A program made the translations under genes and the position numbers. Below are positions 1 through 5,282 of a stretch of 5,282 nucleotides of DNA, in pieces (position 1 is the stretch's first letter; every line of letters begins with the position of its first letter). A model generated the notes under the pieces. The model was not told the DNA's origin. It saw nothing but the letters and a program-made list of their open reading frames with translations, and ran no database searches. The stretch lies in the IMG/VR virus record IMGVR_UViG_2740892019_000008. One strand, 5' to 3'. Source of the stretch: a virus (lineage: Duplodnaviria > Heunggongvirae > Uroviricota > Caudoviricetes).

Positions 1-1383
1 GCAGACCGCGCAGAAGCCGCAGCGGAAGTGACTGCAGAGCCCTGTGCGAATATAGTGCCGCCGCTGCCCGATGTGTGGATACCGTTTAATGATTCACTGG
101 ATATGATTACGGGCTTTTCGCCATCATATAAAAAAATTGTTATTGGCGACGATGAAATAACAATGCCTGGCGACAAGATTGTAAAGTTTAAACGCGCATC
201 GAAAGCAACTTACATTAATAAATCTGGTGTGCTGACAGAGGCTGCCATTGACGAGCCACGATTTGAACGTGATGGCCTGCTTATTGAGGGGCAAAGAACT
301 AACCTGCTAATCAATTCAACAAATCCGACTAAATGGAACAAGTCGTCAAATATGATCTTAAGTGCATCAGGTGTAGATGATTTCGGATTCCAGTACGCAA
401 AATTTACATTAAAACCAGAAATGGTAGGGCAAATTTCAGCGATTAACATAGTAACCGTTTCCGGCAGTAAAGGTTTTGATGTAACAGGCGGAGAAAAGTA
501 TGTAACCATATCATGCAGGGTGCAAAGTGGCACTCCAAATTTAAGATGCCGATTACGATTTGAAAACTATGATGGTTCTACCTACACATTCTTAGGTGAC
601 GCTTACTTAAATACGACAGATTTATCTATTGATAAGACGGGTGGTGCCGCTAATCGCATTACTGCAAGGGCTGTTAAAGATGAAGCAAGCAAATGGATCT
701 TTTTTGAGGCGACAATTAAGGCACTTGATACAGAAAATATGATAGGTGGAATGGTTCAGTATGCCCCGGCAAAAGGAGTGGGCACTGGCGCGGATGATTA
801 TATTTATATTGCGACCCCTCAAGTTGAAGGTGGGGCGTGCGCTTCATCGTTTATTATAACAGGCGCATCCCCTGTAACACGCGCCAGCGATATTGTAACG
901 GTCCCCATTTCTCTAAATTGGTGCAATCCCGCTATTAGTTCATTAGCAGAAGTTAATACCAATTGGGATGAATCGCCAAACAAAGAAGGTAGCGCACGTA
1001 TTCTTAATATTTCCACTACGGGAGATACAACTGAAATTGCAGATGAAAGTTATATGTATTTGGGGTATACATCTTTGGGAGCACGCGCAATCATTACAAA
1101 TGGTAAAGGCACTAAAATAGAATATAAAAGCGTTATAGAACGACCAGAGAGAAAAAGCATTATCGGCTTTAGATTCACAGAAAGTCGAGAATTGTGTGTT
1201 GTGGTTAACGGTAATATTGGTGCTAAGGTAGTTTCTCCTTATAAAAAACACAAATATACAGGAGGCTTCATTAATATTGGTGGTCAATCATCATCCGGCA
1301 ACCGTCACCTATTTGGACACGTTCGAAATCTGCGTATTTGGCACAAGGCATTGACTGATGCTCAGATGGGGGAGTCAATCTAA
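1..1383 (+). CDS. Phage tail fibre / receptor-binding protein, C-terminal part (5'-truncated at window edge), ending in a LamG/concanavalin-A-like domain
   Basis: The frame of the 28..1383 ORF is open back to position 1 with no stop. The GTG at 28 has no usable spacing to a Shine-Dalgarno and the first in-frame ATG (103) has none, so the gene most likely starts upstream of the window. The C-terminus (...GNRHLFGHVRNLRIWHKALTDAQM) resembles the conserved end of LamG-type lectin-like domains common in phage receptor-binding proteins. The stop TAA overlaps the next gene's ATG (TAATG at 1381..1385). Product call is by motif recognition and context only. Confidence 0.6.
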   Translation, partial: ADRAEAAAEVTAEPCANIVPPLPDVWIPFNDSLDMITGFSPSYKKIVIGDDEITMPGDKIVKFKRASKATYINKSGVLTEAAIDEPRFERDGLLIEGQRTNLLINSTNPTKWNKSSNMILSASGVDDFGFQYAKFTLKPEMVGQISAINIVTVSGSKGFDVTGGEKYVTISCRVQSGTPNLRCRLRFENYDGSTYTFLGDAYLNTTDLSIDKTGGAANRITARAVKDEASKWIFFEATIKALDTENMIGGMVQYAPAKGVGTGADDYIYIATPQVEGGACASSFIITGASPVTRASDIVTVPISLNWCNPAISSLAEVNTNWDESPNKEGSARILNISTTGDTTEIADESYMYLGYTSLGARAIITNGKGTKIEYKSVIERPERKSIIGFRFTESRELCVVVNGNIGAKVVSPYKKHKYTGGFINIGGQSSSGNRHLFGHVRNLRIWHKALTDAQMGESI

Positions 1384-1664
1384 TGAAAGATTTAACACTC
1401 AAATTTGCCGACAGGGCCGACTTTTCGGCCTTTATGGGAAGTATTGGCTATTATAATGACGAGTCGATGCAGGATGATATTCTGATTGATGTGATAGGTA
1501 ACGTGTACAAAGAAACCGGAGAGCTGACTGAAGATGGCGAACCGGTATGTGTTAAGGAAGATGGATATTTTGTAAACGTGCGCATCATTAAGGATACGCA
1601 AATATCGTCATTATTCGATGAATACGCGGTTGCTGTTGAGCATAAACTTCGTGGCTGGATGTGA
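1383..1664 (+). CDS. Hypothetical small acidic protein (93 aa), translationally coupled to the tail-fibre gene
   Basis: ATG at 1383 overlaps the upstream stop, with GGAG at 1371..1374 as Shine-Dalgarno. The protein is rich in D/E and has no transmembrane segment. Its position between a fibre gene and an S74-domain gene suggests a fibre assembly or adaptor role, but no recognisable motif supports that. Confidence 0.55.
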   Translation: MKDLTLKFADRADFSAFMGSIGYYNDESMQDDILIDVIGNVYKETGELTEDGEPVCVKEDGYFVNVRIIKDTQISSLFDEYAVAVEHKLRGWM

Positions 1665-1673
1665 GGTAGAGAA

Positions 1674-2378
1674 ATGGCTACATCAACAGTAATTCCGGGA
1701 GACATCACCACGCTGAAGGGAGATGTTAGTAAAGCAAAGGAAGATATTTCCTCTATTAACGGAAAAGTATCAACGCTTCAGACTGATATGGCCAGTGCAA
1801 AGCAGGATATCAGCACCAGATACACAAAAACTGAAGTTGATAATAAGCTGAAAAACAAAGTGGAAGTGAACGATCTGGAAAGTGGTCGTTATGGCGGAGA
1901 TTTTTACCCGCTGACTGGCCGTGAAGCGTTTTATTTATGGGGATTGGGCACAACTACAGCGGCGGCAAATCTTTATCTTAATCCTGACCCTGCAATTTCG
2001 TCTGTGCTGCGGTCAACATCGTCTATCCGCTATAAACATTCAGTAGAGACGATAGATTCAGAGCACGCCGATCTCATTTTCAGGATGCGCCCTGTGTGGT
2101 ACAGGTCGCAATGCGAAAATGACAGGCGTGACTGGGGATTCTATGGATTGATTGCCGAGGAAGTTGGAGAAATTGCCCCTCAGTTTGTTCACTGGCGACC
2201 AGCCAACGAAGATGATGCACCGGAAACCATTTCCAGCAATGGCCTTGTTGCCGAAGGTGTAATGTACGAACGTCTGGTTGTTCCACTGATTCACCATATC
2301 CAGAAGCTGACTGAAAGAGTTGATGAACTTGAGTCAGAATTAAAGTTGTTATCCGTTTCCCGAAGCGATATCGGATAA
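1674..2378 (+). CDS. Short tail-fibre-like protein with C-terminal peptidase S74 intramolecular-chaperone (auto-cleaving) domain
   Basis: GAGG at 1663..1666 lies 7 nt before the ATG at 1674. The N-terminal ~60 aa carry two copies of a K-x-D-[VI]-S-x-AK-x-DIS motif typical of fibre repeats. From about residue 116 the sequence fits the S74 chaperone domain (PF13884-like): S116-S-I-R-Y-K121 matches the S-[DS]-x-R-x-K Ser/Lys dyad motif (codons at 2019..2036), followed by WGFYGLIAEEVGEIAPQFV and a C-terminal coiled coil (ERVDELESELKLL). Confidence 0.75.
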   Translation: MATSTVIPGDITTLKGDVSKAKEDISSINGKVSTLQTDMASAKQDISTRYTKTEVDNKLKNKVEVNDLESGRYGGDFYPLTGREAFYLWGLGTTTAAANLYLNPDPAISSVLRSTSSIRYKHSVETIDSEHADLIFRMRPVWYRSQCENDRRDWGFYGLIAEEVGEIAPQFVHWRPANEDDAPETISSNGLVAEGVMYERLVVPLIHHIQKLTERVDELESELKLLSVSRSDIG

Positions 2379-2388
2379 AGGAGGAGTA

Positions 2389-2676
2389 ATGGATATAACA
2401 CCTTTTCTTCATGCGCTTTGTGCTGTGGCGGCGCAGGTACTGATTGGCCTTTTTACCGGAAACTGGATTTACGGGGCGATAGCCGGTTGTACGTTCTTCA
2501 TTGCGCGGGAACACACCCAAGCAGAATATCGCTGGATTGAAATGTTCGGGCATGGCAAGCGGATTAACATGCCGTGGTGGGGCGGTTTTGATACGCGCGT
2601 GTGGGATATGGCAAGTCTGATGGATTTTGCTGTGCCGGTGGTGGCGTGTTTACTTGTATTTATATTTTTTGAATAA
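2389..2676 (+). CDS. Hypothetical small membrane protein (95 aa, about three predicted transmembrane segments)
   Basis: Strong Shine-Dalgarno AAGGAGGA at 2379..2386, then ATG at 2389. Three hydrophobic stretches (FLHALCAVAAQVLIGLF, WIYGAIAGCTFFIA, FAVPVVACLLVFIFF). It is the last gene of the + strand operon and is followed immediately by a hairpin terminator. No lipobox or signal peptide is evident. Confidence 0.6.
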   Translation: MDITPFLHALCAVAAQVLIGLFTGNWIYGAIAGCTFFIAREHTQAEYRWIEMFGHGKRINMPWWGGFDTRVWDMASLMDFAVPVVACLLVFIFFE

Positions 2677-2681
2677 AATTA

Positions 2682-2708
2682 AGACCCCATCTATAACTGA
2701 TGGGGTCT
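2682..2708. terminator. Bidirectional rho-independent terminator between convergent operons
   Basis: Perfect 10-bp inverted repeat AGACCCCATC (2682..2691) and GATGGGGTCT (2699..2708) with a 7-nt loop. A T-rich tract follows on the + strand (2709..2720), and on the - strand the hairpin is followed by TTAATTTTATTC. It sits 6 nt after the 95-aa gene's stop and 17 nt after the sopB stop. Confidence 0.65.
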
Positions 2709-2724
2709 ATTCTATTTTCTGCTA

Positions 2725-3714
2725 TTAGTTATTTTTTACATCGGAAGAATTTCCAAACGCCTCCTCAAGAATAGATTCAATTTTACTCATTAGGTGCGAT
2801 GGTATTTTTCTGTTATCTAATTTTAATGTTGTGAAATTTTTCCCATATTTCGCCACAACACCGTCTCCATATTTCTTTTCCCTTTTCTCTCCATGTGAAT
2901 TGTTTTTCTCAACAATAATGAAATCATGAAGAGCCTGTATTATTCTTTGCGCATCTAAACTTTCACCTGATTTTTTCATCCTCAGCAACTGAGATGCAGC
3001 ATTTTTCATGGCTGCTTCCTGTCCCTGATATGCTTTAAAAAGAGCGTCTCCTGCTCTGGCTGATAACTCACCAGGATGGTTAAATATTGCCAATATATCT
3101 TTAGGTAAACCGGCTGTATTAATACATCGACTGATAATATTTCTATCCACGCCTTCGGCTTCAGCTAAAGATTTTACGTTACCGTCAAATTCATGGAGCC
3201 TTCGCAGGTATCTTTTCCCCCTTTCATAGGCGCTGATAGGTCTATAGTCGTTGCCTATCTGCGATAACCATTGCATTTGTTCATCATCTAAATCGCCAAT
3301 AAGAACACGATAATCGCATCCAGTTATAATGGCTGCTTTACGTCTTCGAGAACCATCAGCTACTTCAACAATACCTGACACTTTTCTTGCGAAAGCCGGA
3401 TTTTGTTGCCCAGAAGTTAGAAAAGATGGAATTAAATCAGCTAGAGAAGATTCATTTAATAAATCTTGATCGCGCTCATTACCTAGCCATACCATTGTTG
3501 CCATTTCTACTTTATCTGCGGGGATCGTCTCTAACTTAAAGTTAACATTACGTCCGCATACTGGCAAAGTTATGCTATTACCGGTTAATGAACTCAGTTG
3601 ACGTTTTAAATCACCAACCATAGGTGATACCGGCTGATGTTCAGGTGCATGATGATTATTACTCATAATGCGATTAATATCCGGAGCATTTTTTAGAAGA
3701 GAGCGTTGTTTCAT
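2725..3714 (-). CDS. sopB: Partition protein SopB (ParB-family centromere-binding protein)
   Basis: The translation closely resembles F-plasmid SopB as recalled from memory (e.g. ...GNSITLPVCGRNVNF..., WLGNERDQDLL, LIPSFLTSGQQNPAFARKVSGIVEVADGSRRRKAAI). The ParB GSRRRKAA arginine-rich box is encoded at 3331..3354. The start ATG overlaps the sopA stop (ATGA at 3711..3714), indicating translational coupling. Confidence 0.9.
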   Translation of the reverse strand: MKQRSLLKNAPDINRIMSNNHHAPEHQPVSPMVGDLKRQLSSLTGNSITLPVCGRNVNFKLETIPADKVEMATMVWLGNERDQDLLNESSLADLIPSFLTSGQQNPAFARKVSGIVEVADGSRRRKAAIITGCDYRVLIGDLDDEQMQWLSQIGNDYRPISAYERGKRYLRRLHEFDGNVKSLAEAEGVDRNIISRCINTAGLPKDILAIFNHPGELSARAGDALFKAYQGQEAAMKNAASQLLRMKKSGESLDAQRIIQALHDFIIVEKNNSHGEKREKKYGDGVVAKYGKNFTTLKLDNRKIPSHLMSKIESILEEAFGNSSDVKNN

Positions 3715-4880
3715 TCTTCGTTCTCCCAGCGAGGTTTTATTAGATCATCAAAAATTTCTCGACAAACAGGATCCCATATAGAGACGGCATTTCTCCATGC
3801 ATTAAGTGTTGAACGCTGGTTTGCCGCTTGTTCAAATACTGTTCGCATTTTTATCTGACCTTTACCTACTTCATCGGTAACGCGTACAACCTGACGTAAT
3901 ACCATTGATCCCCATGTATTTCTTATTTGCTCTTCCATCCATCGTGATTGATTTCCTGTAGTGAGACTATATTTAGTCAGAAGCAAGCGAACGGTCGGCT
4001 CAAATCCGCCTAGGTCAACGCTTTCTAGGAGATCGAGAAGCATTGTGAAAAACTGTAGAACAGAGGCGTAATCAAATAATTCTGCAGGGGTAGCAACAAC
4101 GATAACGTCAGCTGCGCAAACAACGTTAATGGTTCCTGTACCGAGGTTTGGAGCACTATCTATAACGATAACATCGTAGTTATCCCAAACTGATTCTATA
4201 GCTGCGCGTAGCATCAGGTGAGGAGGGTGAGGCAATTTACCCTGAGCATGATATTGCATGAGATCTGTTTCTATACGGTGTAAAGCTAGGCAGCTAGGAA
4301 TAATGTCCAGTCCAGGCCAGCATGTTGGTTTTATAGCATATTCAGCGTTATCGCGTTCGCCTAAGTAAAATGGCAGTAAAGTATCCTCGGCATGGATATG
4401 TAAATCAGGTACATAACCGTGATACATGGAGGCTGTTCCCTGAGGATCGTTACCTTCAACTAAAAGAACACGATGGCCTTGTAATGCTAGCCATTGTGCC
4501 TGATGTACTGCAGACGATGTTTTATAAACGCCGCCTTTGTGTGACATAACAGCAAGCACAACTGGGTTTTTATCTTGTGGCCGTTGGTTTGGGTTGCCAA
4601 AAACAGCTCGCATACTATTGATTTGATCTATGGTATAACCGGCACGACGTTCAACTCTTCCTCTCATTTCAAAGTCAGGTGCAGGTAAACGCCCGTTCTT
4701 CTCAGCATCTCTTATTGCTTGAGGAGTTACACCAATTAAATCTGCTACTTCAGTTATCCCCCATCTACGCGTGATACGCCGAGCTTCAGGACTATCATCA
4801 CCGAATTGAGCGATAGCAATTGCTTTGGTCATTTCTTGACCACGCGTAACACAATCTTGTAATAACTTTTTCAAAGACAT
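3711..4880 (-). CDS. sopA: Partition ATPase SopA (type Ia ParA with N-terminal HTH extension)
   Basis: The translation closely resembles F-plasmid SopA as recalled from memory (EMTKAIAIAQF.DDSPEAR.ITRRW, VLLVEGNDPQGTASMYHG, DLHIHAEDTLLPFYLGE, IKPTCWPGLDIIPSCLALHRIE). A deviant Walker A KGGVYKT is encoded at 4518..4538. The N-terminal ~100 aa before Walker A are typical of autoregulating type Ia ParA proteins. GGAG Shine-Dalgarno (complement of 4889..4892) lies 8 nt before the ATG at 4880. Confidence 0.92.
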   Translation of the reverse strand: MSLKKLLQDCVTRGQEMTKAIAIAQFGDDSPEARRITRRWGITEVADLIGVTPQAIRDAEKNGRLPAPDFEMRGRVERRAGYTIDQINSMRAVFGNPNQRPQDKNPVVLAVMSHKGGVYKTSSAVHQAQWLALQGHRVLLVEGNDPQGTASMYHGYVPDLHIHAEDTLLPFYLGERDNAEYAIKPTCWPGLDIIPSCLALHRIETDLMQYHAQGKLPHPPHLMLRAAIESVWDNYDVIVIDSAPNLGTGTINVVCAADVIVVATPAELFDYASVLQFFTMLLDLLESVDLGGFEPTVRLLLTKYSLTTGNQSRWMEEQIRNTWGSMVLRQVVRVTDEVGKGQIKMRTVFEQAANQRSTLNAWRNAVSIWDPVCREIFDDLIKPRWENEE

Positions 4881-4901
4881 ACTGTCATCTCCAGCTTATA
4901 A

Positions 4902-4979
4902 CTTTGCTTAATAATTATTTCTTTGCATATTTCTAGCAAATTGACATAGAAAAAGCAAAGTAAAACAAAAAACGCAAAG
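4902..4979 (-). promoter_or_regulatory. Putative sopAB promoter/operator with four SopA-type CTTTGC hexamers in dyad-symmetric arrangement
   Basis: On the + strand CTTTGC occurs at 4902..4907 and 4921..4926, and GCAAAG at 4955..4960 and 4974..4979. Each pair is spaced 19 bp, and inner and outer pairs share the same centre (about 4940.5). F SopA is known to autoregulate by binding four CTTTGC motifs in its promoter. Exact -35/-10 elements were not pinned down. Confidence 0.55.
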
Positions 4980-5167
4980 ACGAAGATTTGAGCAAAATCA
5001 TCTTTTGTTTTATCCCTTAAATGCAAAAACAAACAACGACAAGCACATAACAAATTGATAATAAATGCTTTTTTAAAAGAAAGGAAATCGTATAAAACTA
5101 GGGAAACATGATGAAAATCATCAATGAGATACGTTTCCTCTATTTATTCTCCTAATCCTCACCAACA

Positions 5168-5268
5168 AAAGAACACAATCAAAGATTGTAAAACAACAAT
5201 AATAATGCACACAAAATAAAGAACACAAATACAGAAAGCAACAACACAATAAAAACAAGATAACACAA
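5168..5268 (+). repeat. A/C-rich, strand-asymmetric tract with direct repeats (AAAGAACACAA twice, AACACAA four times)
   Basis: AAAGAACACAA at 5168..5178 and 5218..5228. The core AACACAA starts at 5172, 5222, 5243 and 5262 (spacings 50, 21, 19 bp). The + strand here has almost no G or T. No ORF is listed in any frame. The tract runs to the window edge and may continue beyond it. Confidence 0.4.
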
Positions 5269-5282
5269 GCTATAAATATTAC

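Follow-up and report, generated by a model that had tools for sequence, protein, structure and literature searches.

The DNA analysed here, a stretch of 5,282 nucleotides from the Caudoviricetes virus record IMGVR_UViG_2740892019_000008 (referred to at its full length as the window), carries a plasmid-partition operon, sopAB, directly beside phage tail-fibre genes. A first-pass annotation, made from the letters alone, had placed an F-type sopAB operon at 2725-4880; these limits are exact, and both open reading frames (ORFs) are intact on the minus strand. It had also remarked that the sopC centromere array of plasmid F is missing behind sopB, and had concluded that the centromere lies elsewhere on the replicon and that the element is a phage-plasmid. 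The features of the partition locus are given below, with hexamer sequences as read on the plus strand.

2725-3714, minus strand: sopB, ParB-family centromere-binding protein, 329 amino acids, full-length ORF
3711-4880, minus strand: sopA, type Ia ParA partition ATPase, 389 amino acids, full-length ORF
4881-5000, minus strand: predicted sop promoter and operator with five SopA-binding hexamers, from alignment to F, N15 and phiKO2
4974-4979: hexamer #1, GCAAAG
4955-4960: hexamer #2, GCAAAG
4936-4941: hexamer #3, GCAAAT
4921-4926: hexamer #2', CTTTGC
4902-4907: hexamer #4, CTTTGC
4889-4892: ribosome-binding site, GGAG
2682-2708, no strand assigned: bidirectional intrinsic terminator, common to sopB and the convergent gene of the tail module

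The partition operon

The sopB start and the sopA stop share four nucleotides (ATGA). SopA scores 734 bits against the NCBIfam SopA equivalog model NF010259 (cutoff 725), with model positions 1-387 of 388 aligned; it also matches the Pfam families AAA_31 and CbiA, shows a weak match to a MerR-type helix-turn-helix (HTH) at residues 42-68, and carries the deviant Walker A motif KGGVYKT at residues 115-121. SopB reaches 405 bits against the F-type ParB equivalog NF010252 (cutoff 274), has the Pfam domain SoPB_HTH at residues 160-231 (E 1.6e-23) and matches the solved DNA-binding domain of F SopB (PDB 3mky, E 5.8e-39). The ParA, with its deviant Walker A motif and HTH region at the N-terminus, and the SopB-type HTH ParB encoded directly downstream of it make the locus a type Ia ParABS system of the F SopABC family. 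This protein assignment is settled by sequence identity to characterised proteins.

More specifically, SopA is 99.7% identical to its counterpart in Escherichia phage PhiR46_1 (PV340565), 93% identical to that of N15 and 74.9% identical, over its full length, to that of F. The SopB sequence is found unchanged (100% identity) in PhiR46_1 and the plasmid p19KM1803_4, as well as in several E. coli plasmids of about 46 kb and many contigs, the exact protein occurring in 2114 index blocks, and it is 74% identical to N15 SopB and 49.5% identical to F SopB. The label of the first-pass annotation thus holds as far as the F family and type Ia are concerned, but 'N15-type' describes the operon better than 'F-type'. 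Most of the 26% divergence from N15 SopB falls in the first 40 residues and the last third of the protein, which in the window is 13 amino acids shorter. The alignment gives a recognition helix of DRNIISR for the window, DRNIVNR for N15 and SRKIITR for F, so that the recognition residues are DRN in the window and SRK in F, while the arginine equivalent to F R219 is kept (the roles of the recognition residues of F SopB are described in PMC3597684). A helix this close to that of N15, together with the conserved arginine, fits a site specificity of the N15 type rather than of the F type.

The predicted operator comprises, in the sense of sopA, three direct hexamers (CTTTGC, CTTTGC and ATTTGC) at 13-bp intervals and two inverted hexamers (GCAAAG), each placed 28 bp from its partner, with four exact CTTTGC hexamers falling inside 78 bp. 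Every hexamer column is conserved in a four-way promoter alignment with F, N15 and phiKO2, and the numbering follows the published model of the F-family Par promoter with ParA-binding hexamers #1, #2, #3, #2' and #4 (PMC8465637). The CTTTGC hexamers, 13-bp intervals and 28-bp inverted spacing give 4902-4979 the layout of a type Ia ParABS operator. The hexamers differ in detail from those of N15, where #2' is GTAAAG (a perfect GCAAAG here) and #3 is CTTTGC (ATTTGC here). By analogy with the characterised systems, SopA may be expected to bind the hexamers and to repress its own promoter. A consensus promoter scan of the window did not call the sop promoter, which was assigned by the alignment with F and N15 instead. 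A further ORF of 60 amino acids with a TTG start (4871-5053, minus strand) lies over the operator hexamers and was set aside as a probable annotation artefact rather than a gene; in PhiR46_1 its counterpart is annotated as a hypothetical protein (45813-45968). N15 is said to have a second, telomere-proximal sop promoter repressed by TelN, a point on which no conclusion here depends.

Behind sopB, the hairpin at 2682-2708 has a 10-bp stem (six GC pairs) closed by a 7-nt loop, with T-runs on either strand, and its RNA folds with a free energy of -21.3 kcal/mol (z = -6.1), a value that none of 200 shuffled sequences reached; it is therefore regarded as a bidirectional terminator. It starts 16 nt past the sopB stop and 5 nt past the end of a convergent phage gene of 95 amino acids (2389-2676), so that the terminator and phage gene previously described as standing right behind sopB are both in place.

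Centromere sites and the telomere end

The window was searched for centromere motifs of the F and N15 types and for tandem arrays. The F palindrome GGGACCNNGGTCCC and the N15-type motif GCGACCNNGGTCGC both gave zero matches in the window with up to three mismatches allowed, the core GACCNNGGTC gave none, and no perfect palindrome with arms of at least 7 nt was found there. A single GGGACC hexamer, at 900-905, is no more than chance would give (0.97 expected). Tandem Repeats Finder reported no array in the window, only a trivial AT-rich repeat of 14 bp x 2.4 near the right edge (5196-5229), while the same program, run on plasmid F as a positive control, detected the 43-bp x 10.7 sopC array that begins 88 bp past sopB and holds nine perfect TGGGACCNNGGTCCCA sites. 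The organisation of the F locus, with 43-bp tandem repeats directly downstream of sopB, is thus absent here, and the terminator and the convergent phage gene fill that place.

Both absences claimed in the first-pass annotation, that of an adjacent sopC array and that of GGGACC/GGTCCC inverted repeats, are therefore borne out, under a more stringent search than had been open to it. However, the motif it had looked for was that of F, whereas the cognate N15-type motif is GCGACC/GGTCGC (PMC7205306), which is absent from the window as well. The two sites have the same 16-bp frame and differ at one position per arm, TGGGACC..GGTCCCA in F against TGCGACC..GGTCGCA in the N15 type. F SopB functions on its own site only and not on those of N15, while N15 SopB uses four sites, IR1-4 (PMC7205306).

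The right edge of the window is occupied by one more feature.

5100-5282, no strand assigned: AT-rich telomere-adjacent spacer (26-29% GC), outer arm of the telomere-resolution region

This spacer could be aligned with PhiR46_1, p19KM1803_4 and N15. What lies beyond it is seen in two contigs that were located by looking up the exact protein sequences of SopA and SopB. The first, L021, matches window 2620-5282 at 100% identity, and the second, L018, is free of mismatches from about 2300 to 5282. Past the window edge, both continue for 55 bp to the core of the telomere site telRL, CCATTATACGCGCGTATAATGG, followed by the protelomerase gene telN and then by repA with one TGCGACCNNGGTCGCA site. The first-pass annotation had pointed to a telomere, a protelomerase and repA as genes or sites to be sought past the right edge, and all three are present in L021. 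The window accordingly ends 55 bp short of the telRL centre, that is, of the hairpin tip.

Other assemblies carry the imprint of the same tip. A contig of about 46.5 kb (L022) begins at the telomere, and fold-back palindromes of the form sopB-sopA|tip|sopA-sopB are present in L016 and L025, likewise contigs of about 46.5 kb, as well as in L003, L005 and plasmid E1 p2, the palindromic assemblies being symmetric about a point 55 bp past window base 5282. Both forms are to be expected when sequencing passes through the covalently closed hairpin of a linear replicon. The placement of sop between tail genes and telRL, with protelomerase and repA beyond, is that of an N15-type element. Several public contigs of the same element likewise start or stop only a few bases from the telomere, and the edge of the window at 5282 may itself be a contig end caused by the hairpin, conceivably through an assembler k-mer effect.

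The centromere sites themselves are found in the relatives. Five perfect TGCGACCNNGGTCGCA sites are present in each of PhiR46_1, p19KM1803_4, pEC21Z151-46K and E1 p2; the SopB of three of these four elements is identical to that of the window, E1 p2 carrying a different SopB allele. N15 and phiKO2 each have four sites of the TGCGACCNNGGTCGCA type, and those of phiKO2 are labelled 'putative plasmid partitioning site' in its GenBank record. Positions are syntenic among the relatives, N15 and phiKO2: repA contains one site, a second follows the Q antiterminator gene, a third stands just before a late methyltransferase gene, and the lysis/DUF4406 region is followed by one or two more. All of them fall in the telN-repA arm of the linear prophage map, 25.6-36 kb from sopB, and the contigs that are identical to the window across sop carry the repA site. 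This agrees with the claim that the centromere must lie elsewhere on the replicon.

For N15, the published sites IR1-IR4 read TGCGACC-NN-GGTCGCA (PMC7205306, Table 4), and all four were recovered in the N15 genome; they match the published oligonucleotides except in the left arm of IR1, which is AGCGACC in the record and TGCGACC in the oligonucleotide. Linear N15-derived vectors gain stability from the repA site if sopAB is provided in trans (PMC2847241). Statements in PMC7205306 and PMC2847241 that cite Ravin & Lane 1999 also report that N15 SopB binds the sites and that sopAB is needed for a stable linear prophage.

The fifth site in elements of the PhiR46_1 type makes a pair with another 220 bp away, between the DUF4406 gene and the next gene (17795/18015 in L001, 5495/5715 in L009, 17753/17973 in L012 and 31994/32214 in L013). 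It is tempting, if rather speculative, to suppose that the centromere set of this E. coli lineage has expanded from the four sites of N15 to five, and that the 220-bp pair could be an early step towards a clustered centromere. If both paired sites load SopB, then with a SopB that is 26% diverged, partition efficiency or incompatibility could shift relative to N15.

Interpretation and alternatives

Taken together, the gene identities, the operator architecture, the centromere-free window, the adjacency of telomere, telN and repA in sequence-identical contigs and the conserved sites in elements with the same SopB make it very probable that the window is the sop-proximal end (the telL end in N15 nomenclature) of an N15-like E. 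coli linear telomere phage-plasmid, with its centromere dispersed on the other arm. The sopAB operon is of the ordinary plasmid-partition type, lying between tail-fibre genes and a hairpin telomere. The phage-plasmid identity that had been proposed is in line with the best complete match, PhiR46_1, an N15-like linear genome with telomeres, repA, cI and sopAB.

In such an element, SopA and SopB would be made from an autoregulated promoter that SopA represses via the CTTTGC hexamers. SopB would bind the 16-bp palindromes TGCGACCNNGGTCGCA in the other arm of the replicon rather than beside the operon, namely in repA, after Q, before the late methylase gene and at one or two places after the lysis/DUF4406 region. 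The SopA ATPase would then move the SopB complexes apart on the nucleoid, and the low-copy linear prophage would thereby be stably inherited. The binding of the sites by SopB, the repression of the promoter by SopA and the segregation mechanism would all be as published for N15 and F, from which they are carried over.

Several points weigh against this interpretation. The complete replicon of the window itself was not recovered, and no record matches the entire window; an exact search of genome and viral contig collections with a 90-mer that contains four window-specific single-nucleotide polymorphisms (SNPs) gave zero matches. The dispersed sites are demonstrated in relatives only, which are identical or 99% identical across the sop region, and for a SopB variant that differs from N15 SopB at 26% of positions, site binding and a role in stability are putative. 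Finally, the tail-fibre part is a mosaic, although the gene order from the tail module to sop is the same in every N15-like relative. The components of this part, identified by PHROG, Pfam and NCBIfam matches, are as follows.

1-2676, plus strand: tail-fibre module
1-1383, plus strand: side tail fibre Stf, C-terminal 460 amino acids
1383-1664, plus strand: gene of 93 amino acids
1674-2378, plus strand: fibre protein of 234 amino acids with a Peptidase_S74 chaperone domain
2389-2676, plus strand: membrane-like protein of 95 amino acids, convergent on sopB

The tail-fibre genes include a match to the tail protein family phrog_1419 (E 1.7e-199), and their order is the same in PhiR46_1 and in all related contigs. 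Over 56-2649, the window is 99.1% identical to the tail-fibre regions of many E. coli chromosomal lambdoid prophages. By comparison, N15-like contigs that are identical to it across 2300-5282 show 56 mismatches at 1339-2300 and cannot be aligned at 304-1338, and among the relatives alternative cassette alleles encode a fibre protein of either 234 or 346 amino acids. The pattern points either to frequent exchange of host-range cassettes, in which virulent phages take part as well as prophages and phage-plasmids, or to a chimeric assembly at the shared gene of 95 amino acids. The tip of Stf (61-900) is also 86-88% identical to virulent T1-like phages.

In the case of a chimera, this particular tail-fibre sequence would have been joined to sopB by the assembler at a stretch of about 260 bp (2388-2649) that is common to a chromosomal prophage of the same genome. 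The near-identity to chromosomal prophages and the loss of similarity to the N15-like contigs are what such an error would leave behind, and the end of L021 at window position 2620 is typical of a contig broken by a repeat. However, a homologous cassette (Stf, the 93-amino-acid gene, fibre and the 95-amino-acid gene) occupies the same position and orientation, in several alleles, in all N15-like relatives, so that natural cassette exchange explains the mosaic equally well. A chimera is considered unlikely, though more than a negligible possibility, and the conclusion on the sop locus is unchanged whether or not there was one.

Far less probable is a non-canonical centromere within the window, in which the AACACAA repeats, or an imperfect direct repeat of 50 nt at 5153-5252, would be the loading site of SopB. 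The region upstream of sopA does contain an AT-rich repeat block, made up of the 50-nt repeat (72% identity), the 14-bp x 2.4 repeat and four AACACAA heptamers (at 5172, 5222, 5243 and 5262, pointing away from the telomere). But these heptamers have mirror copies on the telN side: telRL is flanked left and right by outward-pointing TTGTGTT heptamers at a distance of about 70-165 bp from its centre, an arrangement kept in this lineage, N15 and phiKO2, which suits repeats flanking the telomere-resolution site better (telRL flanking repeats are mentioned in PMC12624138). The HTH recognition residues of SopB, moreover, match those of N15, whose sites are GCGACC palindromes, and perfectly conserved palindromes occur elsewhere in relatives with an identical SopB. 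The AACACAA heptamers probably correspond to the accessory repeats known from the telomere-resolution region; regions with mirrored heptamers were seen at 23760-24440 in L009 and 24300-25300 in L002.

Equally hard to credit is a degenerate sop remnant, devoid of a partition role, in an integrated chromosomal lambdoid prophage. The similarity of 56-2649 to chromosomal prophages, the presence of the sop segment twice on one 'chromosome' record (YDC107) and its position beside chromosomal genes on a 2.7-Mb contig (L006/L007) speak for it. Against it, both ORFs are full length and above equivalog cutoffs, and operator and terminator show no damage. The supposedly chromosomal copies are sopBA|tip|sopAB palindromes; that of YDC107 opens the record, and its first arm is full of frameshifted pseudogenes, as in a misassembled hairpin-ended plasmid. 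Of 5426 complete E. coli genomes, 15 contain the sop segment, and plasmid records account for 21 of its 23 places. Sequence-identical contigs, moreover, run into telRL, telN and repA.

Relation to known elements

As the end of an N15-like phage-plasmid, the window can be compared with several described elements. With N15 it shares the order of tail genes, bidirectional terminator, sopB, sopA, promoter and telomere, as well as the layout of the operator hexamers, and the 16-bp palindrome TGCGACCNNGGTCGCA stands at syntenic places in relatives that encode the SopB of the window. The differences, besides those in SopB and the operator, are the four sites of N15 as against five in the lineage of the window, and the tail-fibre cassette. 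Plasmid F SopABC belongs to the same type Ia family and has the same CTTTGC operator architecture, but is set apart by the tandem sopC array that follows its sopB. In the Klebsiella phage-plasmid phiKO2 the arrangement is the same, with four annotated sites of identical palindrome sequence; it differs in its HK97-like head genes, its host and a more divergent sop promoter region.

The best complete match, PhiR46_1, has a linear genome of 46,290 bp with telomere sites annotated at both ends, a first gene of protelomerase size, a 4-kb replication gene repA (annotated as 'primase'), a cI/cro/Q region, lambda-like head and tail genes, and sopBA as the last genes before the telomere. No mention of this phage was found in the literature. 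Together with p19KM1803_4 and pEC21Z151-46K it has 98.5-99% nucleotide identity to the window across 2388-5282 (98.5% for PhiR46_1 and p19KM1803_4). PhiR46_1 and the plasmids of about 46 kb share with one another an identical SopB to that of the window, a SopA that differs by one amino acid, telomere sites, telN, repA and five palindromes. What distinguishes this group is a fibre protein of 346 instead of 234 amino acids, another C-terminus of Stf and about 26 SNPs over sop and its promoter.

The combination of sopAB without an adjacent sopC and scattered centromere palindromes is the published paradigm of N15 and no discovery. The dispersed-centromere arrangement of N15 has been on record since 1999 (Ravin & Lane 1999, as cited in PMC7205306 and PMC2847241), and a survey of the N15 group of phage-plasmids, in which partition, protelomerase and repA genes are co-localised, has been published (PMC7969092). 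The first-pass annotation had itself named N15, and the fit it saw is supported by the syntenic palindromes of the relatives, N15 and phiKO2; because that arrangement was already described, the finding confirms known biology. Its value as a discovery is small, since the phiKO2 GenBank record already annotates the arrangement and near-identical elements, including a sequenced phage, are public. The practical use lies in annotation, as the window can be confidently labelled the telomere-proximal end of an N15-like phage-plasmid, and the cognate centromere motif to look for in such elements is TGCGACCNNGGTCGCA rather than TGGGACCNNGGTCCCA of F. Rfam and tRNA scans of the window were both empty.

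Perfect tip palindromes, produced by reading through the hairpin, are present in many public assemblies, for instance L015 (NZ_CP025707.1, 1-28255), L003, L005-L008, L013, L016 and L025, and some plasmid records (50-75 kb) are inflated by the same palindromes. Such palindromic records look like misassemblies of a linear plasmid of about 46 kb, and neither like integrations nor like duplications.

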